Of a stretch of DNA of 52,087 nucleotides, positions 2,538 through 52,087 are shown in pieces. The stretch's first letter is position 1. Each line of letters opens with the position of its first letter. Source of the DNA: Escherichia virus TH21; sequence record MT446395.1, one strand, 5' to 3'. The translations under genes were made by a program, and so were the position numbers. Under the pieces are notes generated by a model, which saw nothing but the letters and a program-made list of their open reading frames with translations, did no database searches and was not told the origin of the DNA.

Positions 2538-2604
2538 TTTGTATTCCTTAGTGAGTGTGTTTCGTTTCGATGGAGTAACTATAGCAAAGGATGATTACGG
2601 AGTC

Positions 2605-2621
2605 TTTAGCAAATCGTGCCA
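2605..2621 (-). promoter_or_regulatory. palindromic operator-like element (variant TGGCAC-N3-TTGCTAAA) of the repeated cassette, upstream of cor
   Basis: plus strand tttagcaaatcgtgcca; followed on minus strand by TATAGT and leader ATCGAAACGAAAC then AAGGAA-ATG. Confidence 0.5.
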
Positions 2622-2995
2622 TTTGATATACATGTAACCGATGTAACTCGGTGTATACAATCTCGTCCGCGGAAAATGATATACGCGCAGTTACGCCTAG
2701 TTACGCGATAGTTACATTAAAATATCTATATATATCAACCTTCTACTATAATTATTATTATTATATATATTACTGTGTATATCGTGTAACTACTTCTATA
2801 GAGTGTTCCGCTTATAAATTTCTAATATGGTTATTTATACAGTATCTAATCACGCATACACTAATGCACCCTCCGCGAAAAATGATATACACGATATACA
2901 CGCTGTTTACATCAAGCTATGGCTGGGCCGGATAGCCATTTTATGTAACTAATGCCATTACATACACGCTATTACAAATATCTACATGTAACTAC

Positions 2996-3023
2996 TTGAC
3001 TGACGCAACCAAGCGCGTATAGT
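2996..3023 (+). promoter_or_regulatory. sigma70-type promoter (TTGACT-N16-TATAGT) for the recombination operon
   Basis: hexamers read directly at 2996..3001 and 3018..3023; ATG at 3057. Confidence 0.55.
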
Positions 3024-3056
3024 TACCCACATCAACAACGAACGAGGATTAAAGAG

Positions 3057-4097
3057 ATGACCAAGCCAATGTTTCAATACTTCACGTCAGAAGAAATGAG
3101 CAACGACTTTTACCACAGCAAAGATGAGTGGACCGCCGAGTATGTATCAGGCTCATCACTCAGCAAGATCCACAGTACTTGCCCTGCGGCGTGGAAGTTT
3201 GAAATGAACTCGACGACTAAGGCGCTGGTCTTCGGTACGCAGTCGCATACCAATTTCGAGAGTAAGGCTCTTTTTGAACGTCAATATCGCCGCGCACCGA
3301 AAGAAAGCGAGATTGAAAACGTAATCACTAGCCAGGCGACATTGGCAACGAAATTAAAATCATTTGGCCTGACTGGTACAAGCGGCAAGCAATATCCAGA
3401 GCTAATCAAAATGATGGTTGATTGTGGAGAAGATCTCAACGTCATGTGGCTGATTAATATGATCGCACAGTGTCAGGCGTGGGCCGATGGTGTGGAACTG
3501 GTTAAAGCGGAAGACTACGACGCTTGCGTAAGTATGCGACAGGTTCTTGAAATGATTCCTGAACATAATGCTTGCATGAACAGCGAAACGGCATTCCGTG
3601 AGTATTCTTTGTTCGGCGTAATTTGTGGCGTTAAAGTTAAGGTGCGACTTGACCATGTTGATATTGTTAAAGATCCAGAAGCTATCCGACGCATGGGTTA
3701 CGATCCTGAGATTCACCCTGAAATTGTCGTCATCACTGATTACAAAACGACAATGAGCGCCAACCCGACCGAGTTCCCTCGCCTGGCGTTCAACCTTGGC
3801 TATTACCTCAAGATGGCATTGCAGCGTGACCTGTTCGTTAAGTGCTTTGAAGAAACGCGACCTGTGGTTGTGCGATTGCTGGCCCAGGAGAAGAAGGAGC
3901 CTTACTTGCCTATGGCGTACCGGATGAGTAGCGATCAGCTTAAGATTGGTCGAGCGCAGTACATGAGCGTGATTCACACCTTCTCAATGTGCGAAGCCAA
4001 TGACGTATGGCCTTCATACAATAATGGCGAGCCGGAAGTAGAACTGGATACGCCTGATTGGGTAATGAAACAGTTCAATCATATCCTAGAAGCATAG
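3057..4097 (+). CDS. recombination exonuclease, PD-(D/E)xK-type
   Basis: 346 aa; D...(I)TDYK nuclease-like motif; first gene of exo-annealase-SSB triad. Confidence 0.55.
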   Translation: MTKPMFQYFTSEEMSNDFYHSKDEWTAEYVSGSSLSKIHSTCPAAWKFEMNSTTKALVFGTQSHTNFESKALFERQYRRAPKESEIENVITSQATLATKLKSFGLTGTSGKQYPELIKMMVDCGEDLNVMWLINMIAQCQAWADGVELVKAEDYDACVSMRQVLEMIPEHNACMNSETAFREYSLFGVICGVKVKVRLDHVDIVKDPEAIRRMGYDPEIHPEIVVITDYKTTMSANPTEFPRLAFNLGYYLKMALQRDLFVKCFEETRPVVVRLLAQEKKEPYLPMAYRMSSDQLKIGRAQYMSVIHTFSMCEANDVWPSYNNGEPEVELDTPDWVMKQFNHILEA

Positions 4098-9147: not shown

Positions 9148-9627
9148 TTATTCTTTAGCTTTCCGTGCTGCTTCGTTTGCTGCTTTAATTTTTCGCCATG
9201 AGCGACATTCAGGCTTAGTGGCTAGTTCAGCCTCGGTGACGACGCGCAACATGTGACGCTTTTTGCAACGCAGCGTTAGCGGCTTACCGTTCCCGTCGAA
9301 TTGCAAGTCTGGTCGGCAGAATGTAGCGCGGAACCCTTCGCCAGTTCGCTTATATCGGTTGTGCGCCAGTTGAGCACCGCGCGCCGACATCATCCCACGC
9401 TTAAACCATTCCTCAACTGCCTGTCGAGTAACTTTTAATTGCTTCGCCATGTTCGCCTTGCTGCCGTAGAACTCAAACACAATATCAAGTCGCGCTCTTA
9501 ATCCGGCCTTTACTTCATCCTTGAGAACATAGTAACCTGACGGTCGTTTGCGCTGCTTCTTATCTTCCGTGCGGATAGTTCCGTTGTTACCGTTAAGAGT
9601 ACGCTTATCATTTGCATTCATTTTCAT
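9148..9627 (-). CDS. helix-turn-helix DNA-binding protein (putative transcriptional regulator)
   Basis: 159 aa, basic; HTH-like segment MAKQLKVTRQAVEEWFKRG. Confidence 0.4.
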   Translation of the reverse strand: MKMNANDKRTLNGNNGTIRTEDKKQRKRPSGYYVLKDEVKAGLRARLDIVFEFYGSKANMAKQLKVTRQAVEEWFKRGMMSARGAQLAHNRYKRTGEGFRATFCRPDLQFDGNGKPLTLRCKKRHMLRVVTEAELATKPECRSWRKIKAANEAARKAKE

Positions 9628-9635
9628 CACCTCAA

Positions 9636-15758: not shown

Positions 15759-15932
15759 ATGGTTAAATTATTTTGCGTTAAGAACACATCTAAAACCCTG
15801 CCTTTCACTGTTAACAATCCGTACAGCGCCGAGTATCAAGGTGACGGTAACTACAAGATTTACGGCGACGATATGACGTGGATTTTTGCGCCGCTTGATG
15901 GTGCGCTGGTTGAATTTATTATCGCTGACTAG
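15759..15932 (+). CDS. hypothetical small protein (57 aa)
   Basis: not in ORF track; RBS AGAGGA; followed by strong terminator. Confidence 0.4.
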   Translation: MVKLFCVKNTSKTLPFTVNNPYSAEYQGDGNYKIYGDDMTWIFAPLDGALVEFIIAD

Positions 15933-17209: not shown

Positions 17210-17346
17210 ATCCAAATCTTTGCACCAGAAGCAACAATTCGCCTTCATTATTGCATAGAGTATGCTCATCACGTCGTCCGGCGCGCATTGATGAATTTAG
17301 CATTGAAAGAAGGGCTTGGTTAAGCCCGTCCTCGCTAATGCCATTC

Positions 17347-17724: not shown

Positions 17725-19308
17725 TTACCCCAGCAGTCGCGGATTAATGTAAATTTTATCACCAATCAGGCACGTATAGTTTTTCTCATCCAGCATAGGG
17801 ATCAGATGGTCTTTGATGCGAGTCATTACACCAGCCTGGCCCTCGAATGGCTTAACCTTACGCGCCGCTTCATATAGGGATCGGACACCTACAACGCCTT
17901 TCCCGTTCTTGCCTTGCTTGATCAGGATGTCAATAAGCTTGTTCATCTCCGCATGGTCGCCAGCGTGACCAGCAGCGTTTGCAGATGACAGATAAGTTTT
18001 ACTCAGTTCCTGGAACATAATTACAGCTTCTTGCATTGTATCAAGCTCAATCTCTCTGGACTTCTGCGGACTTCCGCCATTGGGATTGAACCAGTTACGC
18101 ACAGTGTGAAGAACCGCCGCGATCCTGATGGCCTGCTTATCAAACTTACCAAGCGCGCCGCGAAGCATTGTGTGTGAATACTTCCCGCCGTCCGCAAGGT
18201 GAGGTTCCATATCCTGACGCGCACGGTTGAGATATTTCATCGCCGACGTGCTCACTGTCAGGTTGACTTCGTGTTCGCTCATGATCTCATGGACCAGACG
18301 GAAGTAGTCCGCCTTGAGTCCGCCATCAATCGGCTCATATGTTGATTCGCCTTTTTCGTCAACGAATACACGCTCGCCAAGGAATGACTTCTCACGCACA
18401 AGCAAGAAACGTTCTGACACACCGATACCACGCGCACCAGCATTCATGATCGCGTTGATTGTTTCATCCTGTGCAATTACAGAGATGCAACCCATAGCGA
18501 TAAAGCTCATGTTATTGTCTGCGTTCGCACGCGCGATAGATACGTTACCAGCATCCCATGCCTTAAGCACAAGTTCGCTGTTCGTTTTCTTTGAGCCGTC
18601 ACCATAGGTCATGCCTAACAGTGAGTTTACGCTCGTTGCTTCATCCGAGATCACAGAGAAGTTCCCCTGGCGGTTGTTGATTCGCGCCAGACCTTCCGGC
18701 GTGGTGTCGGATACGGGGAATACGATGTCACAAAGGCGTTCCAGTTTTTCTTCCAGTTCTTCTTTTTCCTCAAACAGTGCCGCCATGTCGGACGGTGATT
18801 TTTCCTGCTTCATCTCCTTGGATAGAGCAGATAGTTTAGCCATAATCTTCTTGCGGTCGCGCTTTCGGATCTCGTTGAGTCGTTCAGTCTCTGCGATCAT
18901 CGGGGCCAGCGAAAGTGAGTTAATGGCTGATTTACCTGTCGATGGTGGCTGACTGGTTACGACGTAAAGCGCGGTCGGCTGTTGTGTTCCGTGATACTCA
19001 ACCGTAAAGCGGCCCAGCATGGCGGCTGATATGCATCCGAGGAAATGCATGTAAGCGGACGACTCGGGGAACTGAACTGAACGAGCGGCATTGCTTGACA
19101 GCTTACCAACGACATCATAATCGTTACCAAGTGAGATAACCGGATATTTGTCACCGCCCGAGTCGATTTCTGTTGGTGCTTTCCAGAACGACTGGCTTTG
19201 CCTGTACCCGTTCGCATTGATGGCAACGCGCAGGGGCGGCAGGTTATCGGCGGCGGCCACAGCCATAACCTGATCGATAGACAATTTATCTTCGTTAAAA
19301 TCAAACAT
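17725..19308 (-). CDS. P-loop NTPase, possibly VirE/DUF3987-like primase-associated helicase
   Basis: 527 aa from ATG 19308 (AAGGAG 7 nt upstream); Walker A-like SQPPSTGKS; N- and C-terminal segments recur in 24573..25127. Confidence 0.45.
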   Translation of the reverse strand: MFDFNEDKLSIDQVMAVAAADNLPPLRVAINANGYRQSQSFWKAPTEIDSGGDKYPVISLGNDYDVVGKLSSNAARSVQFPESSAYMHFLGCISAAMLGRFTVEYHGTQQPTALYVVTSQPPSTGKSAINSLSLAPMIAETERLNEIRKRDRKKIMAKLSALSKEMKQEKSPSDMAALFEEKEELEEKLERLCDIVFPVSDTTPEGLARINNRQGNFSVISDEATSVNSLLGMTYGDGSKKTNSELVLKAWDAGNVSIARANADNNMSFIAMGCISVIAQDETINAIMNAGARGIGVSERFLLVREKSFLGERVFVDEKGESTYEPIDGGLKADYFRLVHEIMSEHEVNLTVSTSAMKYLNRARQDMEPHLADGGKYSHTMLRGALGKFDKQAIRIAAVLHTVRNWFNPNGGSPQKSREIELDTMQEAVIMFQELSKTYLSSANAAGHAGDHAEMNKLIDILIKQGKNGKGVVGVRSLYEAARKVKPFEGQAGVMTRIKDHLIPMLDEKNYTCLIGDKIYINPRLLG

Positions 19309-19378
19309 TAAAAAACTCCTTAGTTGGTGCGCTAATGTTAACGCACCTATGGTAAAACCGCTTGCCAAAAAATGCTAC

Positions 19379-19732
19379 TTATTTATACGCCGACTCAAAT
19401 CTGTAAGTGCCGCATACTGTTTCGAATCCGACATCATCCGAGCGGTACAATTGCCAGGCTACGCCGTCGTTGTCGAAGATGTAACCAGCGTTACTACCGA
19501 GTCCTGCGTGCATGTCAACCTGGTAACGTTTGCCTTGAGTGAAGTCTTTTTTAACGGCAGATTTATGATTTACCTTAGTAACGTAAATGGTTTTAGTCTT
19601 GATGTAACGGCCCTTGATATCAAGGTTAACCCACTTGCCATCAACCTTGATTTGCTCTACCTCATCTTTTACGCGAGCTTTCAGAAGGCGGTTGTCGGAG
19701 GTAACGAAGTTTTTGGTGATTGTGGTAGCCAT
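19379..19732 (-). CDS. hypothetical protein
   Basis: 117 aa from ATG 19732 preceded by AAGGAAA and the conserved leader. Confidence 0.45.
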   Translation of the reverse strand: MATTITKNFVTSDNRLLKARVKDEVEQIKVDGKWVNLDIKGRYIKTKTIYVTKVNHKSAVKKDFTQGKRYQVDMHAGLGSNAGYIFDNDGVAWQLYRSDDVGFETVCGTYRFESAYK

Positions 19733-19796
19733 GATTATTTTCCTTTGGTGTGTTTCGTTTCGATGAGATGAATATACAGGAAAAGCCCCGAAGGGC

Positions 19797-19813
19797 TTTA
19801 GCAATTCGTGCTA
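19797..19813 (-). promoter_or_regulatory. cassette palindrome TAGCACGAATTGCTAAA overlapping the stop of the methyltransferase-like gene
   Basis: followed on minus strand by hairpin agccc-ttcg-gggct plus T-run, TATATT, leader ATCGAAACGAAAC. Confidence 0.5.
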
Positions 19814-20494
19814 TTTGGTTAAATGATTTGCCAGGTATACGGCGCGCGCAAATCCACGAGGAGTCAGTGAGCGCAACTGCTTGGTTTTTGCAGACTTCCC
19901 GCCGAGGTACTTCCATCCCCAAAAGAATCCAATGTTAATCGGGCCAGGCTTCTTCACTGGCTCAACGAATCCGTTACCATGCCAGATGCAAGTTTTCTTC
20001 GTGTAGCCGTCGTATTTCGGCATTTTTTCGTGGTACGGAAGATCGTGAGCTTTCATGAGTCCGCCGTATTCATACGGATTGAAGTAGAAGTCAGGCTTAC
20101 GCCACAGGCTTGACAGCTTGCCTACCGGATTCTCGACCATCCAGGGTGCCTGGAAGTGATTTCCGACTTCCTCGACGAGCTTCGCATTAGCCAGGGCGTA
20201 CGCCAGTTCATCATCACTGCGCTCATGCTGTGATCCAGACTGAGAGAACAGCGTGCAATCAGGGAATCCGATAACCATCTGCGCCGGAGGAAGGCCGAGC
20301 AATTCACACTTGGTAATGAAATCCTTGTCAATCCACATGTTGACGTAGTGAATGTTCTCATGCTTCATCTTGATGTGATATTCGCCATGATTGCCGGAGT
20401 CCGCGTTGAAGCAGTAGACGGTGTGACCATCTTCCGCCCATGGGAGGCCAGCGATACCAGAACCGTCGAACAAGCAGTAAATTACCTTTTTCAT
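19811..20494 (-). CDS. C5-cytosine methyltransferase-like protein (short, orphan)
   Basis: 227 aa; motif I-like CLFDGSGIAG, motif IV-like GFPDCTLFSQSG, motif VI-like VENP, in canonical order. Confidence 0.4.
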   Translation of the reverse strand: MKKVIYCLFDGSGIAGLPWAEDGHTVYCFNADSGNHGEYHIKMKHENIHYVNMWIDKDFITKCELLGLPPAQMVIGFPDCTLFSQSGSQHERSDDELAYALANAKLVEEVGNHFQAPWMVENPVGKLSSLWRKPDFYFNPYEYGGLMKAHDLPYHEKMPKYDGYTKKTCIWHGNGFVEPVKKPGPINIGFFWGWKYLGGKSAKTKQLRSLTPRGFARAVYLANHLTK

Positions 20495-20649
20495 TTCTTC
20501 TTAGCCTTCTCAATTGCTTTCTGTGTGATTTCGTAACTGCTTTGCAAGTCTTCAACCTGAGCGCTGGTGCTCCATGGATGCCATCCTTGACCTGAGAGCT
20601 TCGCGATCGTGTCGTTGTCGTAGTAGTTCAAATCGGATGGCTTGAGCAT
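20491..20649 (-). CDS. hypothetical small protein (52 aa)
   Basis: not in ORF track; ATGA overlap with downstream gene and TAATG overlap with upstream gene. Confidence 0.35.
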   Translation of the reverse strand: MLKPSDLNYYDNDTIAKLSGQGWHPWSTSAQVEDLQSSYEITQKAIEKAKKK

Positions 20650-20888
20650 TATTTCACCTCATCAAACGTTGCGATACCAGGGATAAACATTCCGACCTTC
20701 CAGCCTGCGATAGCAATCCATCCAGAATCGTGCTTGTGCGGTCGCTCAGCGCCATTAATAACCCATTCGTTCGGGATTGTCTTACCGTTAATGATTAGCG
20801 CCTCAGCGTCGTATACAGAACCTTTTACGAACGGTGTCAAAACTTTCTTGTCGGTGCTGGTGATTACGTTAGTGCATTTTACTTTCAT
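20649..20888 (-). CDS. hypothetical protein
   Basis: 79 aa. Confidence 0.45.
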   Translation of the reverse strand: MKVKCTNVITSTDKKVLTPFVKGSVYDAEALIINGKTIPNEWVINGAERPHKHDSGWIAIAGWKVGMFIPGIATFDEVK

Positions 20889-23221: not shown

Positions 23222-23404
23222 TTACATGTGTTTCAGGTAGAAAGCGATTTCACGGATGTTGTCTTCTGGATGAGCCTTCACGACTACCGCGAACATCTTC
23301 TCAACCAGCGCCTTGGTGCTCTCAGGGTTATAACCTTCCTGGACCAGCAGGGCAATAGTGTTTTCGATGGTAACTGGTGAGTTCTTGTTGATGCGCTTAG
23401 CCAT
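23222..23404 (-). CDS. hypothetical protein, first gene of minus-strand accessory operon
   Basis: 60 aa; RBS AAAGGAA; leader ATCGAAACGACAC. Confidence 0.4.
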   Translation of the reverse strand: MAKRINKNSPVTIENTIALLVQEGYNPESTKALVEKMFAVVVKAHPEDNIREIAFYLKHM

Positions 23405-23468
23405 GATGATTTCCTTTAGTGCGTGTCGTTTCGATTAGGTAATAATAGCGAATCACTCCTGATCGGTC

Positions 23469-23485
23469 ATTAGCAAAAAGTGCTA
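23469..23485 (-). promoter_or_regulatory. cassette palindrome TAGCACTTTTTGCTAAT at the head of the minus-strand operon
   Basis: followed by TATTAT and the conserved leader. Confidence 0.45.
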
Positions 23486-23499
23486 TTCGTTCGATTTAT

Positions 23500-23625
23500 G
23501 GATTGTTGCAGCTATTGCAATGATTCACTTCACTATTGCACATATAGCAATATTGCATCGTTTGCAATGATGTTTTCGATTGTTGCGAATTGAGCAATGA
23601 TTCATTGATGGGTGGAATGATGGGG
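23500..23625. repeat. iteron-like cluster of TTGCAATGAT / TTGCA repeats
   Basis: TTGCAATGAT at 23515 and 23562, GCAATGAT at 23594, GGAATGATG at 23614; inverted repeat TATTGC-N7-GCAATA near 23535. Confidence 0.45.
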
Positions 23626-23681
23626 TGAGATCTGATCCCCGATCGCCTGGTAGGATTTTCCCGCCACACGTTTCATCTATT

Positions 23682-23830
23682 TACACGTAACCGAAGTAGC
23701 ACGGTGTAAGCCACACCCATATCGTTACGCGGGTTACGCGCAGCTACGCCCTGACTTACGCCATAAGTCCTTAATATATATATATATCTTCTTTCTATTA
23801 TTATTATTATTATTAATATTATTGTATGTA
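23682..23830. repeat. AT-rich repeat segment paralogous to 2629..2790, with (AT)7 and (TTA)6 microsatellites
   Basis: tacacgtaaccgaagtagcacggtgta vs tacatgtaaccgatgtaactcggtgta; cgcgcagYtacgcc shared; microsatellites in both copies. Confidence 0.55.
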
Positions 23831-24033
23831 AGTCGTGTAACTGGGGTGCTGGAGTTATCTATATGTTTTTTCCTATCAGGGTATATATTTGCTATTTATG
23901 GACGCATTTCGCCAGTACGGGGCCATGACATCAATTTGCCTCGTTACAGCCACGACACCAAACTACATTGAGCTATAGCTGGGCTGTGATACCTTTTCGC
24001 GTAACCACCCCCGAAAGTTACCAAAAATTACAC

Positions 24034-24062
24034 TTGACTACATGTGTAAGTCGGGATACGAT
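24034..24062 (+). promoter_or_regulatory. sigma70-type promoter (TTGACT-N17-TACGAT) for the plus-strand accessory operon
   Basis: hexamers read directly; ATG at 24094 after GAGAGGAG. Confidence 0.5.
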
Positions 24063-24093
24063 TAGCTCAACTTAAACGAGAGGAGTTATAAAG

Positions 24094-24573
24094 ATGAAAG
24101 AGCAAGTAACACTAGGGCAGGTGATTCGTGAGATGGCAAAGGCAGCACTCAAGTCCGAGGATAAGCAATTCAGCGTGCCACTAAGTAAGATTGCAAGCAT
24201 TATCGGAGTCGATGGCGATAACATTCCAAAGCTAAAGAGTTCATACATCTACAACACGACAGCCCGCATGACTGAGCTAAGGGATGTTGGATTGAAAGCG
24301 ACTCACTCCTATGACGACGACGAGGGTGATAGCGAGTTCGGTGAATCAACCCTGGCAGGTGATAGAAGACTGGTTATCAAGCTGGTACCTGGCACGGCGA
24401 ACATTGGAATCAGAAAGAAGACCAATAACGCGATAAAGGAAGAGGCAATCACCGAGTTCAAGGCGAGAATTTCAAAGGTTATGCCAGACATTTCAGAGTA
24501 TGAAGGAGAGGCGCTTGCCGCTGCAATGAAGGCAATTAAAGATTACCGCTCAATCATTGAGGAGATTAAATAA
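24094..24573 (+). CDS. hypothetical protein, first gene of plus-strand accessory operon
   Basis: 159 aa; strong RBS. Confidence 0.5.
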   Translation: MKEQVTLGQVIREMAKAALKSEDKQFSVPLSKIASIIGVDGDNIPKLKSSYIYNTTARMTELRDVGLKATHSYDDDEGDSEFGESTLAGDRRLVIKLVPGTANIGIRKKTNNAIKEEAITEFKARISKVMPDISEYEGEALAAAMKAIKDYRSIIEEIK

Positions 24574-25127
24574 TGTTTGATTTCAACGAAGATAAGTTAA
24601 CTGATGACCAAGTGATGGAAGTCGCCAGGCAAGATAACCTTCTGCCATTGCGCGTGGCAATCAACGCAAACGGATACCGTCAAGCTTTCAAGTTCTGGTG
24701 CAGCGCAGAAGAGATGCTGCGCGTCAAACTGAGCCACAAACAAAGCGTCGTGGTTAAAAGGATTAGCCACCAGGGCCGCAACGGAAAGGGAGTGGTTGGC
24801 ATTAGATCTCTATACGAGGCAATCCGAAAGGTCCAGCCATTCGTCGGGCGCGAAGGGATTATGCATGACCTGACAAATAACATCATCCCAGCACTACAGG
24901 AGGCAGGAATTGTTTGCCTCATTGGCGATAAGATTTATGTGCATCCGGCCCTGGTGGGAATGGATGAACGAGACGTGTACACCTGGTGCAGTCAGCACCG
25001 ATCCGACGCGCGACGTTCTCACTACGTGCCACCGCAGACAACAATCCATGGCTATGATGCCGATGAGGTGGAGAAGGCCATCCAGTTCTACCGGAAAGCG
25101 AAATCTCTCCTGAACGGTGAATGCTAA
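24573..25127 (+). CDS. domain-deleted paralogue of the 17725..19308 P-loop protein (N- and C-terminal segments only)
   Basis: 184 aa; MFDFNEDKL..PLRVAINANGYRQ and GKGVVG.RSLYEA..K..PF...CLIGDKIY match both ends of the 527-aa protein; no Walker A. Confidence 0.5.
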   Translation: MFDFNEDKLTDDQVMEVARQDNLLPLRVAINANGYRQAFKFWCSAEEMLRVKLSHKQSVVVKRISHQGRNGKGVVGIRSLYEAIRKVQPFVGREGIMHDLTNNIIPALQEAGIVCLIGDKIYVHPALVGMDERDVYTWCSQHRSDARRSHYVPPQTTIHGYDADEVEKAIQFYRKAKSLLNGEC

Positions 25128-32687: not shown

Positions 32688-33224
32688 ATGAAAGACGAAA
32701 ACTTCACCAGTCACGCAAACGAGAAGGTTCGAATCGGTAACTTCAAAGAGCTATACAATAAAAAGTATGGCGACATTGCCAACCTGAACCATCGTCACCC
32801 AATGACGCCTGAGACTGTATTCAACCTTGCTGTTAAATATTTCTCATGGGCCGAGGACCAGGCAATTAAGGCAATCGAAACGGCGAGCTTCCAGGGCGTT
32901 GTCACTGAGAACCTAGTGCACAAGCCGCGAGTGTTCACGCTCAACGGCTTCCAGCTTTATTGCGGAGTTACCTCCGGTGCTATCCAAAGCTGGCGCGCGT
33001 CGCCTGGATTCTCTGAGGTAATGGAGTTCATCGACTCAGTAATCATTGAACAGAAATATCAGTTAGCTGCGTCCAACCTTATCAACGCCGGATTCGTAGG
33101 CAAAGACATTGGTATCGACAAGGCGGCAGAAGTGAACGTGCAGAACAACGTATCTGCTGGCGCGGTGTCCGTGACTACGGATGAATTTAAAGAAGCCGTT
33201 AAGGATATTTTGGGGGAATTATGA
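32688..33224 (+). CDS. terminase small subunit
   Basis: 178 aa; position immediately upstream of large terminase; ATGA overlap. Confidence 0.6.
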   Translation: MKDENFTSHANEKVRIGNFKELYNKKYGDIANLNHRHPMTPETVFNLAVKYFSWAEDQAIKAIETASFQGVVTENLVHKPRVFTLNGFQLYCGVTSGAIQSWRASPGFSEVMEFIDSVIIEQKYQLAASNLINAGFVGKDIGIDKAAEVNVQNNVSAGAVSVTTDEFKEAVKDILGEL

Positions 33225-36123: not shown

Positions 36124-36888
36124 ATGAAGGTTAACGGCATTGTAAACCAATGGAGTTACCCCGAAGCAAGCGAGCGGCAGCTTAGCCGCTCATTGTCAAC
36201 ATTCGCAGGCGAGATGGCAAAGAAAGCCAGATCGCTTACTGGCGGAATGAGGTTTGACGCTTCGGACGAAGAAATCAATGATGCAGAAAGTGAGCTTGAG
36301 GAATACGCAGCAGGACTTATCGCGGCGATTGTTGCCACACTTCCGGCGCTGGCTCTGACTATCTACAAGTTTAACTCAAGGCAATTCCTCAACGTGGCGA
36401 AAAAGGCTGGTGGCGGAAAGAATCAATCTGTGATATTGCTTGGCGCACTTGGGGCGAATGCCAATGAGTCATGGTATCGCGAGAAGTCATCGCAATGGCG
36501 CGGTTCGGCTGAGGCGAGTATTCTAAAGCTATCGAACGACATCATCTCTGACTGGTCGCAAAACCTACGCGTCGAAAACGTGCGCAATAAAACCAGTCAG
36601 CAGATTGATGAAGTTTTAAAGCAGCGCTACAAGGTGTATACTGGCTGGACCGTGAATCGCTCCCGTGGAATTGTGTCCACCTGGAACAGCGTACTGATGC
36701 GCCAGCGCTTGGACGATGCTGGAGTAACTCACTATTTCTGGCATGGTAAACTGGACGAGCGCGAGCGATTGCAGCACGTAAAATGGGAAGGTAAACGTAT
36801 TGAGATCTCAAGTGACCATCCTTTCCCTGGAGAGCCTTACGGTTGCCGTTGTTGGGCAATTCCATCATTCGATAGCAATGGGAATTAA
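36124..36888 (+). CDS. head morphogenesis protein (Mu F / SPP1 gp7-like)
   Basis: 254 aa; position after portal. Confidence 0.55.
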   Translation: MKVNGIVNQWSYPEASERQLSRSLSTFAGEMAKKARSLTGGMRFDASDEEINDAESELEEYAAGLIAAIVATLPALALTIYKFNSRQFLNVAKKAGGGKNQSVILLGALGANANESWYREKSSQWRGSAEASILKLSNDIISDWSQNLRVENVRNKTSQQIDEVLKQRYKVYTGWTVNRSRGIVSTWNSVLMRQRLDDAGVTHYFWHGKLDERERLQHVKWEGKRIEISSDHPFPGEPYGCRCWAIPSFDSNGN

Positions 36889-38553: not shown

Positions 38554-39165
38554 ATGGCACTAATCAAAGCTTCTTACACCGTACATCGCGCTAAAGCGTA
38601 TGCTGGTCAAATCGCAGACACCTCCCTTTACAATGTTGACGGGGCTTGCGCGGCTGATGGTTCAATCCCTGTCGGGCGACTTCTCGCAGTGAGTGAAGTA
38701 CAAGCCGTTGACGGGCACAAAGTAGTCAAGGTTGCTACTGACAGTTCTCTACCATTGATTGGCGTTTCAGTTATGAGCCACGCATACTCTGCAAGTGGTG
38801 AATATGAAGACGGAATTGCTGTAAACGTTCTTACACATGGTCGCGTATGGGTTCCTGTCGTTAAGGCTGGTTTACTTGATGACGATTACTCTTACGGCAA
38901 GCAGGTATTGTTTAACTCAGATGGCGTAGTTGCTCGAGATGGCGGTATTGCAACTGGTTATAAATTTACTGGTCAGAAGTTATCATCTGATAATGCTACA
39001 TATGATCTCGTTCAGATTCAGTTGCTTCAATCTGCTGGTGCTCCCGTTGTTGGTCCTCAAGGTGCGAAAGGTGACACTGGTCCGCAAGGTCCGAAAGGCG
39101 ATAAAGGTGATACTGGTCCGCAAGGTCCAAAAGGTGACAAGGGCGACCCTGGCGCGGCGGCTTAA
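38554..39165 (+). CDS. head-associated structural protein with C-terminal collagen-like Gly-X-Y repeats (decoration/fibre candidate)
   Basis: 203 aa; GPQGAKGDTGPQGPKGDKGDTGPQGPKGDKGDPG. Confidence 0.45.
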   Translation: MALIKASYTVHRAKAYAGQIADTSLYNVDGACAADGSIPVGRLLAVSEVQAVDGHKVVKVATDSSLPLIGVSVMSHAYSASGEYEDGIAVNVLTHGRVWVPVVKAGLLDDDYSYGKQVLFNSDGVVARDGGIATGYKFTGQKLSSDNATYDLVQIQLLQSAGAPVVGPQGAKGDTGPQGPKGDKGDTGPQGPKGDKGDPGAAA

Positions 39166-49148: not shown

Positions 49149-52087
49149 ATGATTAAAAATAGTGTAGTGACGGGCCGAAAGGGTGGCAGCAGCAAGCCGC
49201 ATACCCCACAGGAGATGGAAGATAACCTGATCTCAATCAACAAGATTAAGGTTTTGCTCGCTGTTAGTGATGGCGAGGTTGACGCGAACTTCTCATTAAA
49301 GGACTTATATCTTAATGATGTTCCTGTAATTGCACCATCCGGCGAGGTTAACTATGAAGGCGTAACGGCTGAGTTTCGCCCTGGAACGCAGACTCAGGAT
49401 TACATCAAAGGCTTCAACGACACGGCGGCTGAGTTCACTGTAGGCCGTGAATTGAAAACAACGACGCCTTACGTGATCTCGGTAACGAATAAACAGCTAT
49501 CAGCCGTCCGCGTAAAAATCCTGATGCCTCGCGGCGTTACAACGAAAGAAAACGGCGATATGGTCGGCGTGGTCGTGAAGTGGGCAGTAGATATGGCGGT
49601 AGATGGCGGGAACTACCAGGAAGTTTTATCAGACGTCATCGACGGAAAGACCATTAGCGGATATGACAAAACAAAGCGAATCGACCTCCCAGCGTTCAAT
49701 AGTCAGGTTCTATTGCGTGTTCGACGCGTTACGGCTGATTCAACTGATGCGCGCATCGTTGATACGATAAACATCCAGTCTTATGCCGAAGTGGTTGATG
49801 CTAAATTCCGTTACCCTCTGACTGGTCTTGTTTACGTCGAGTTTAACAGCGAGCTATTCCCGCAGATCCCAAGTATTAGCACGAAAAAGAAATGGAAGCT
49901 CATTAACGTTCCGAGCAACTATAATCCAGAGCTTCGCGAGTATAACGGCACATGGGATGGCAGCTTCAAAAAAGCGTGGTCAAATAATCCGGCGTGGGTG
50001 CTTTATGATTTGATTACCAATCAGCGCTACGGACTCGACCAGCGGGAATTGGGAATCGCGGTTGATAAGTGGTCACTCTATGACGCTGGTCAATACTGCG
50101 ACCAAAAAGTGCCAGACGGTCACGGAGGAACGGAGCCTCGCTATCTTTGCGATGTGGTGATTCAGTCTCAGGTTGAAGCGTACAATCTTGTGCGAGACAT
50201 TTGCTCAATATTCCGAGGAATGAGCTTCTGGAACGGTGAGAGCCTTTCAATTGTCATCGACCGACCGAGAGAGGCGTCTTATATTTTCACTAACGATAAC
50301 GTCGTTGATGGCTCATTTGCCTATACGTTCGCAAGTGAAAAAAGCATGTACACAACCTGCAACGTCACGTTCGACGACGAGCAGAACATGTACAGCCAGG
50401 ACATTGAGGGCGTGTTCGACCTTAACGCTTCATTGCGCTTCGGCCATAACCCGACAAGCATCACGGCGATCGGATGCACTCGACGCAGTGAAGCGAATCG
50501 ACGGGGCCGCTGGGTTCTCAAAACAAACCTTCGCAGCACAACGGTGAGTTTTGCAACTGGCCTTGAGGGTATGATTCCGATGATTGGCGACGTGGTAGCA
50601 ATCGCTGATAACTTCTGGTCAAGCAATCTGACGCTTTCGTTATCAGGTCGTGTGATGGAAGTGTCAGGCCTGCAAGTGTTCACTCACTTCAAGGTTGATG
50701 CGCGCGCTGGTGATTTCATTATCGTGAACAAGGCTGACGGAAATCCGGTGCGCCGGACGATTTCAAAAGTGTCTGCGGACGGGAAAACCATTGAGCTTAA
50801 CGTTGGATTCGGCTTTGATGTTCAACCCAACACAGTGTTCGCAATCGACCGCACTGATGTGGCCTTGCAGCAATACGTTGTAACCGGAATCACGAAGGGA
50901 GACGGCGACGATGAGTTCACGTACAGCATTACGGCAGTTGAATACGATCCGAACAAATACGACGAGATTGACTACGGCGTAAATATTGATGACCGACCAA
51001 CCAGTATTGTAGATCCTGACAACATGCAGCCACCAAAAAACATTGTTGTTTCATCATACTCTCGAATTGTGCAGGGGATGAGCGTTGAGACAATGGTGAT
51101 AGGGTGGGATAAAGTTCAGTACGCGAGCAAGTACGACGTGCAGTGGAGAAAGGATAACGGTAACTGGATGAACGTACCGCGTACAGCAAGCTCAGAGGTT
51201 GAGGTTGAAGGGATTTATGCGGGTAATTATCACGTACGCGTAAGGAGCATATCAAGCGGTGGAAACACGTCTCCATGGTCTGATGTTGTCAGCGTTGGGT
51301 TGACTGGTAAGATTGGGAAGCCAGATAAACCAACAGTAATAACCGCATCTAACGACCAGGTATTTGGGATACGGGTTAAATGGGGATTCCCTGAAGGTTC
51401 TGGCGACACTGCCTACACTGAGTTGCAGCAGATACCAGATAATGGCGCGGGAGGTCACACAGGAGAGGAGAACGCAAGCCTGTTAACAATGATCCCATAC
51501 CCTCAGTACGAGTACTGGCACTCGACACTACCGGCAGGATATGTGAACTGGTACAGGGCAAGATTGGTAGACAGGATTGGTAACGCCTCTGACTGGTCTG
51601 ACATTGTTCGCGGAATGGCAAGCGATGACGTTGAGTCAATAATTGGAGAAATAAAGGTTGATATCGAGAATTCCGAGGGGTTTAAGTACCTACAGCAGAA
51701 CGCCATTGAGTCAAACGGAGCTATTCAGGCGCAGGCGGAATCAATTCTTGAAAACGCACTTGCAAACGACACGGACGTGCGACGAATGACCAAGGAAAAC
51801 GGCAAGCGTAAGGCTGAATACGTTCAGGCGGTGAATCTTATTGCTGATGAAACTCAGGCGCGCGTAGAGGCTCTCACTCAGCTTAAAGCGCAGATTGATG
51901 ATGATGTCGTAGCCTCCATAACTGAAGTTCAGACGGCACTAGCCACCGAAACGGAAGCAAGGACCACGGCGGATACAGCTCTGAGTTCTCAGCTTGGAGA
52001 TACTCAGGCAGCGCTGAATGAAAAACTTGATTCCTGGGTGGATGCAGAATCAGCTGGCGCCCAGTACGGCGTTAAGTTAGGTCTAAA
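49149..52087 (+). CDS. tail tip / host-specificity protein (lambda J-like), 5' part; runs off the window end and continues at 873..1317
   Basis: open frame from ATG 49149 with no stop to 52087; in frame with ORF 85..1317 through the 872-bp repeat; full length about 1127 aa. Confidence 0.75.
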   Translation, partial: MIKNSVVTGRKGGSSKPHTPQEMEDNLISINKIKVLLAVSDGEVDANFSLKDLYLNDVPVIAPSGEVNYEGVTAEFRPGTQTQDYIKGFNDTAAEFTVGRELKTTTPYVISVTNKQLSAVRVKILMPRGVTTKENGDMVGVVVKWAVDMAVDGGNYQEVLSDVIDGKTISGYDKTKRIDLPAFNSQVLLRVRRVTADSTDARIVDTINIQSYAEVVDAKFRYPLTGLVYVEFNSELFPQIPSISTKKKWKLINVPSNYNPELREYNGTWDGSFKKAWSNNPAWVLYDLITNQRYGLDQRELGIAVDKWSLYDAGQYCDQKVPDGHGGTEPRYLCDVVIQSQVEAYNLVRDICSIFRGMSFWNGESLSIVIDRPREASYIFTNDNVVDGSFAYTFASEKSMYTTCNVTFDDEQNMYSQDIEGVFDLNASLRFGHNPTSITAIGCTRRSEANRRGRWVLKTNLRSTTVSFATGLEGMIPMIGDVVAIADNFWSSNLTLSLSGRVMEVSGLQVFTHFKVDARAGDFIIVNKADGNPVRRTISKVSADGKTIELNVGFGFDVQPNTVFAIDRTDVALQQYVVTGITKGDGDDEFTYSITAVEYDPNKYDEIDYGVNIDDRPTSIVDPDNMQPPKNIVVSSYSRIVQGMSVETMVIGWDKVQYASKYDVQWRKDNGNWMNVPRTASSEVEVEGIYAGNYHVRVRSISSGGNTSPWSDVVSVGLTGKIGKPDKPTVITASNDQVFGIRVKWGFPEGSGDTAYTELQQIPDNGAGGHTGEENASLLTMIPYPQYEYWHSTLPAGYVNWYRARLVDRIGNASDWSDIVRGMASDDVESIIGEIKVDIENSEGFKYLQQNAIESNGAIQAQAESILENALANDTDVRRMTKENGKRKAEYVQAVNLIADETQARVEALTQLKAQIDDDVVASITEVQTALATETEARTTADTALSSQLGDTQAALNEKLDSWVDAESAGAQYGVKLGL

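Follow-up and report, generated by a model that had tools for sequence, protein, structure and literature searches.

A conserved four-site palindrome array in the T1-like phage TH21, a candidate operator for the phage's own Cro-fold protein

In lambdoid phages, the Cro and CI operators (lambda OR1-3, P22, N15 Cro) consist of adjacent dyad sites of 15–18 bp that lie between divergent promoters, and the allele of the binding protein changes together with the sequence of its sites. The pac sites of headful phages usually follow a design in which repeats flank the cut zone, as in SPP1 (pacL/pacC/pacR) and P1, with packaging proceeding in one direction; the P1 repeats are GATC-containing hexamers, and the pac site of P22 is located inside gene 3. 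At ori lambda, four dyad-symmetric iterons stand next to an AT-rich stretch. Among the T1-like phages, 21-nt "DR" repeats have been described for phage TLS, in a study that gave their function as an open question (PMC11447400). We compared with these systems a 690-bp intergenic region of Escherichia virus TH21, which separates a leftward operon (first gene start at 23404) from a rightward operon (first gene start at 24094) and contains a cluster of repeats that a first-pass annotation had proposed to be a replication origin, a packaging site, or a multi-site operator.

The sequence analyzed (record MT446395.1, 52,087 nt; hereafter the window) is the complete genome of a T1-like siphovirus of the Drexlerviridae. 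Its nearest records are TH30, 50EP, CJ19, and P817, with TH30 and 50EP filed under Nouzillyvirus. Since bases 1–872 recur as an exact repeat at 51216–52087, the unit genome measures 51,215 bp, to which an assembly overlap is added. This 872-bp overlap should be treated as an assembly artefact and not as biological terminal redundancy, which by homology would be expected from near 23630 onward. Every ORF of the window was profiled for identity against six complete genomes (NBD2, DTL, Sd1, e4/1c, T1, and TLS). The backbone genes (large terminase, portal, capsid, tail, primase, and SF2 helicase) are closest to NBD2, a Vilniusvirus, at 65–87% identity, and share 40–58% with DTL, Sd1, and e4/1c, which carry the cluster. 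The genome as a whole is mosaic: its structural, terminase, primase, and SF2-helicase genes are nearest to NBD2, and islands at 85–1317, 9148–9630, 15759–15932, 19379–20888, and 23660–24573, together with the palindrome cluster, are nearest to Braunvirinae/Rogunavirinae. Apart from 23405–24093, reading the sequence revealed one other large gap, at about 2540–3056. A search of the window for an RNA element found neither an Rfam family nor a tRNA. A collagen-like Gly-X-Y coding repeat, with five overlapping 36-nt copies at spacings of 9 and 27 nt, occupies 39052–39159 inside gene 38554–39165 in the structural-gene stretch.

The cluster at 23500–23625 is real and lies far beyond chance. The four direct-repeat copies noticed in the first-pass annotation were borne out, with TGCAATGAT exact at 23516 and 23563 and carrying one mismatch at 23593 (AGCAATGAT) and 23613 (TGGAATGAT), and so was the inverted repeat TATTGC-N7-GCAATA, at 23534–23552. 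The term iteron-like direct repeats describes them only in part: GCAATGAT consists of the right arm of the palindromes extended by TGAT. Together the repeats make up four 15-bp palindromes of the form TTGCA-N5-TGCAA (TTGC-N7-GCAA; Table 1), whose half-site centers are 10 bp apart, or one helical turn. Genome-wide, the TGCAATGAT 9-mer with up to one mismatch was found 29 times against 21 expected, which is no enrichment and means that the signal of the cluster is local. Four of the seven TTGC-N7-GCAA sites in the whole genome fall within 92 bp; 300 genome-wide Markov simulations never placed more than two such sites in 100 nt, and none of 5000 simulations trained on the cluster region itself contained two or more. 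A one-strand run rich in TGAT/GATT also crosses the region, with six TGAT on the plus strand and none on the minus strand within 23496–23645; it ends in TGGAATGAT and is followed by three GATC sites at 23629–23644. Elsewhere in the window, a fifth site, TTGCACCAGAAGCAA, lies at 17220–17234 with a TTGCA half-site nearby, in a convergent intergenic region, between a terminator-like hairpin that it closely follows and the final gene of the leftward operon.

Table 1. Coordinates of the array, its neighboring elements, and related loci in the window
Feature	Position	Strand	Remarks
Leftward DR-type promoter	23442–23486	-	DR TAGCA-N5-TGCTA within 23470–23486; -10 TATTAT at 23442–23447
Site 1, TTGCAGCTATTGCAA	23506–23520	none	Perfect TTGCA-N5-TGCAA; kept in 15-sequence alignment
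Site 2, TTGCACATATAGCAA	23536–23550	none	One arm mismatch; core of TATTGC-N7-GCAATA; in 15-sequence alignment
Site 3, TTGCATCGTTTGCAA	23553–23567	none	Perfect; arms nearly invariant, 4–5 spacer positions vary among relatives
Site 4, TTGCGAATTGAGCAA	23583–23597	none	Weakest, two arm mismatches; right arm GAAA or GTAA in some relatives
TGGAATGAT	23613–23621	+	GAATGA core kept in all cluster-bearing lineages; part of TGAT/GATT-rich run
Putative pac cut zone	23629–23657	+	From aligned termini of relatives; GATC at 23629, 23634, 23641
Repeat units left of AT tract	23684–23762	none	GTAAC/GTAAG rightward (23687, 23706)
AT tract	23771–23830	none	92% A+T, least stable 60-mer of the genome; followed by GTAAG/GTAAC units, 23828–23841
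Rightward sigma-70-type promoter, TTGACT-17-TACGAT	24034–24062	+	Upstream of gene 24094–24573; EC3a annotates a promoter at the homologous place
Paralogue of 23660–24093	2623–3059	none	75% identical; without palindrome cluster
Cro-fold helix-turn-helix protein gene	9148–9630	-	Candidate binder of sites 1–4; 160 aa; annotated "transcriptional regulator"

Conservation across related phages, which the first-pass annotation had named as a check, was found for the core of the cluster (23492–23603), which is present at 80–99% identity in 128 phage records spanning Braunvirinae, Rogunavirinae, and the window's own group. Both flanks of this block are mosaic: lineages differ in the leftward gene and in what lies to the right of about 23620. 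Many relatives match from just beyond the start of the leftward gene, and the right end of the match falls near 23675 in the closest relatives and near 23620 in distant ones. An alignment of 15 sequences shows fixed palindrome arms and variable spacers, most clearly at site 3, and zero indels in the distance from the DR element of the leftward promoter to site 1. These patterns bear on the possibility that the cluster has no function and arose in a spacer by chance or by hitch-hiking. The lack of genome-wide enrichment of the 9-mer would suit such an origin, but simulations never reached the local clustering, the block is retained in several subfamilies while its flanks are replaced, and its arms are conserved over its spacers, all of which makes this explanation very improbable.

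The block is also non-coding, as had been proposed. The 57-aa minus-strand frame at 23496–23669 fails coding tests: its variable columns are distributed 18/18/17 over the three codon positions, with no bias, and the frame holds stops in SU57, MSK, and e4/1c. Some relatives in GenBank have a hypothetical or membrane protein annotated over the palindromes, and annotators should be warned that an ORF called across this block is not a gene. Searches beyond the phage records gave zero matches to the array in 20,395 records of E. coli chromosomes or satellites, and a scan of IMG/VR for the double palindrome returned 46 loci, 12 of them T1-like (11 distinct contigs), that added no diversity. Matches in Webervirus, considered as a homologous region, proved to be other DR promoters. 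At the position of the TTGCA array, the TLS junction contains AGACCGATTGGTCT twice; NBD2 (51169–51802) contains AGACCGATTGGTCT once, four ATTATTCCA repeats, and five GATC in 30 nt; and T1 contains two copies of TGGAATA along with two TTGCA-N5-TGCAA sites. Lineage-specific repeat sets occupy this slot upstream of the leftward promoter, with the one-strand TGAT/GATT-rich run common to all four lineages.

The geometry of 5-N5-5 palindromes with half-sites one helical turn apart is that recognized by dimeric helix-turn-helix proteins, and dimers with a Cro fold are the type of reader to be expected for them. Of the three functions first proposed for the cluster, the operator fits best, on account of the dyad sites and of the co-occurrence of the array with one allele of a Cro-fold protein. 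We give about an even chance to the interpretation that the cluster is a four-site operator-type array, most likely for the phage's own Cro-fold protein. Like the lambdoid operators, it places adjacent dyad sites of the expected size (four in 92 bp) between divergent promoters, its putative binder has an all-alpha Cro fold, and binder allele and site sequence appear to change together. It differs from them in that the four sites are situated upstream of a DR element and not over a -35 or -10, and in that the regulator has a basic arm at its N terminus and a further domain at its C terminus. On its upstream side, the DR element of the leftward promoter is separated from the array by 20 bp, and the site centers lie at about -78 to -155 from the predicted leftward start; no core promoter is overlapped, and no sigma-70-like promoter was found within the cluster. 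Because the sites lie outside the core promoter, simple Cro-like occlusion does not apply, and the array would work like a Cro/CI operator set that lacks overlap with the promoter, a defining feature of such sets. The gene annotations inspected showed neither an integrase nor a CI-type repressor, and no recognisable lysogeny genes.

The promoter next to the array is of the DR type. The DR copy ATAGCACnnnTTGnTAA at 23470–23486 (minus) is one of about 20 in the genome (e.g., at 4094, 9635, 12226, 19814(-), 21422(-), 23486(-), 25339, and 30355), and each copy is followed 21–23 nt downstream by a hexamer that resembles TATAAT and often has a TG extension, with no -35; a conserved leader, CATCGAAACGA, comes after the DR promoters. 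Centered at about -41, the DR is placed as a class II activator site would be. The leftward operon served by this promoter includes the gene for a DUF3987 helicase. DR elements and cluster sites share the same geometry and nearly the same half-site (TAGCA-N5-TGCTA versus TTGCA-N5-TGCAA, one position differing per half-site). The DR copies, each ahead of its -10-like hexamer, have one consensus across TLS, T1, and this phage; the TTGCA sites are lineage-specific and make up a single cluster. Given the fixed spacing to DR and the shared geometry, control of the leftward promoter is the favored role for the array.

We next considered which protein may read the sites. The Cro-fold regulator is encoded 14 kb from the array; Pfam matches it to YdaS and P22_Cro, both weakly, and its basic N-terminal arm is conserved. 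Its recognition helix, KVT(R/P)Q(A/T)VEEW, is common to close homologues (above about 85% identity) and is different in NBD2, T1, and TLS. The regulator reverses the pattern of the backbone, being 84–91% identical to its counterparts in DTL, Sd1, and e4/1c, 69% to that of NBD2, and about 50% to those of T1 and TLS, while the flanking primase and SF2 helicase genes stay NBD2-like. Its identity is 80% or more in 128 records and falls to 70% or less beyond them; the cluster core is likewise found in 128 records, a comparison made between totals. All ten listed records with a regulator above 83% come from cluster-bearing phages, nine by the same or a duplicate accession and the tenth (26047I) as judged by its sister isolate 26047II. 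Conversely, 0 of the 50 listed regulator records at 70% or less occur among the 60 listed cluster records. NBD2 serves as a control, with a helicase at 85%, a regulator at 69%, and zero TTGC-N7-GCAA sites. The regulator of ACG-M12, a phage of the genus that also contains the cluster-bearing EC3a, is 69.6% identical, and the DR of ACG-M12 is not followed by site 1, the absence of the cluster being seen over the 40 nt before the record ends; a search of IMG/VR and metagenomes for the other side of this junction found nothing.

Counting the Braunvirinae/Rogunavirinae group, the window's clade, and ACG-M12 versus EC3a, array and regulator allele changed together in only about three independent transitions, although such covariation can also stem from shared ancestry. 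Furthermore, TLS and NBD2 share the palindrome AGACCGATTGGTCT at the array position despite regulators that are 46% identical, so a rule by which the regulator allele goes with the local palindrome fails across the family as a whole. T1 keeps two good TTGCA-N5-TGCAA sites with a regulator that is 51% identical. Other candidate partners were examined and rejected. The DUF3987 helicase is 90–93% identical in phages with the cluster, yet still 85% in NBD2 and 80% in ACG-M12, both without the array, and it reaches at least 80% in 144 records versus 128 for the array; the array thus appears to track the helicase only loosely. The 79-aa (20649–20888) and 141-aa (19379–19804) proteins track the array in the six genomes, but ACG-M12, without site 1, still has both in the form typical of cluster-bearing phages.

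The first proposal of a packaging site was close in location: a packaging start does appear to fall within this intergenic region, immediately right of the cluster. Read-based termini of three relatives align to the window at 23632 (UDF157lw), 23639 (MSK), and 23657 (SU57), which is 35–60 bp right of site 4. The UDF157lw record was reorganized by PhageTerm, which called headful packaging with a pac site, MSK has a forward PhageTerm peak at 36,862, and for SU57 the record begins where read coverage changes abruptly. Position 1 of the T1 record falls within the homologous cluster, and a 2800-bp terminal repeat is annotated from there; the TLS record begins in the corresponding intergenic region, where pac was placed by restriction mapping of a submolar fragment. 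The three read-based termini agree closely with one another, and together with the T1 and TLS records they place the start of the packaging series just right of the cluster, with packaging running rightward. By homology with these relatives, packaging of the TH21 genome would begin adjacent to the right side of the cluster.

This proximity raises the question of whether the palindromes themselves form the recognition part of pac, with the small terminase (TerS) bound to the array and the large terminase cutting 10–60 bp to the right for rightward headful packaging. In addition to the termini of the relatives and the T1 and TLS mappings, such an arrangement would match the usual pac design of SPP1 and P1, in which repeats adjoin the cut zone and packaging has one direction. 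The GATC cluster at the cut zone recalls the hexamer repeats of P1, the TerS of the window (32688–33224) belongs to the P22 gp3 family, and the TGAT/GATT-rich run is the only feature here common to four lineages with otherwise different repeats. The small terminase, however, is the less likely binder of the array, its identity tracking neither the array nor the cut-zone sequence. NBD2 has no sites, yet its TerS is the closest to that of the window among the six genomes compared (66.5%), and Sd1 and DTL carry the array with TerS proteins that are 57–63% identical. As for the cut zone, Sd1 and e4/1c differ there with TerS proteins that are 97% identical, and DTL and Sd1 share its sequence with TerS proteins at 63%. 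The array is also far more tightly conserved than TerS. Moreover, the region differs from P22 pac in lying 9 kb upstream of the terminase genes and outside the TerS gene, and the GATC cluster is missing in Braunvirinae relatives, although termini were mapped there. We therefore judge it unlikely that the palindromes are the pac recognition element, and retain the operator for the Cro-fold protein as the preferred reading; as a neighbor of the cut zone, the array may still belong to a pac site in which repeats and cut zone are combined.

To the right of the cut zone lies a non-coding module of about 430 bp (23660–24093) that occurs twice in the genome, each copy upstream of a sigma-70-type promoter. 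The first-pass annotation had stated that the cluster is absent from the paralogous region, which proved correct: 2623–3059 matches 23660–24093 only. Within the repeat units left of the AT tract, four leftward units of the (G/C)TTACGC type start at 23724, 23733, 23743, and 23755. In both copies, GTAAC/GTAAG units face (G/C)TTACGC units around an AT tract of 60 nt. These tracts are the two least stable 60-mers of the genome, at -54 and -56 kcal/mol, where the mean is -83 (sd 5). The layout of the duplicated module is origin-like, or else that of an operator field for early promoters. The product of gene 24573–25127 (+), the second gene to the right of the region, is a protein of 184 aa in which copies of both termini of the DUF3987 helicase (17725–19368, -) are combined, with the ATPase core missing; the N-terminal part (aa 21–68) is 71% and the C-terminal part (aa 485–547) 60% identical. 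Such a protein could compete with or regulate the terminal domains of the helicase.

As for a replication origin, the most origin-like element of the region is a different one from the cluster: the AT tract at 23771–23830 with its opposed GTAAC/GTTACGC units is the better candidate, as judged from its sequence, and it is the element duplicated at 2623–3059. The array could nevertheless be the iteron set of an origin whose initiator, either the helix-turn-helix protein or the C-terminal domain of the DUF3987 helicase, binds there while the DNA opens at the AT tract 170 bp away. Four dyad repeats and a very unstable AT-rich tract in one intergenic region recall ori lambda, and the tract is the least stable DNA of the genome. 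The regulator gene sits within the replication module, between the primase and SF2 helicase genes, and the helicase is well conserved (90–93%) in all cluster-bearing phages examined. A gene adjoining the region copies both termini of that helicase, and the literature holds no known origin for the T1-like family. Unlike at ori lambda, however, repeats and AT tract are about 170 bp apart with the pac zone between them, the AT module with its own opposed units is self-contained and occurs once without the repeats, and the array lies outside any initiator gene. The helicase, moreover, remains at 85% in NBD2 and 80% in ACG-M12, which have no array, and a Cro fold is not usual for initiators. On balance, an iteron function for the array seems improbable to us, and we continue to favor an operator-type array read by the Cro-fold protein.

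If the Cro-fold protein does read sites 1–4, its dimers would coat about 90 bp of DNA, and the bound protein would set the activity of the leftward promoter. The array ends about 30 bp before the start of the packaging series in relatives, and the bound protein may also limit or position the access of terminase to the adjacent pac zone. A bolder and rather doubtful extension is that the Cro-like protein and its four-site array constitute a specificity module for the sites at which the genome is handled, acting not as a transcription switch but as a landing pad for terminase (pac) or the replisome (origin). If true, this would provide the first sequence-level definition of a T1-family pac site or origin, and it would explain why array and regulator move together between otherwise unrelated backbones.

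Phages of the T1 type are common contaminants in laboratories and industry; they also act as generalized transducers and are candidates for therapy. In the literature searched, we found no definition of a pac sequence or origin for the T1 family and no description of a role for its conserved regulator. A concrete candidate pair of protein and site, placed beside a packaging start mapped in relatives, would make the questions of pac, origin, and regulator in this family experimentally tractable.
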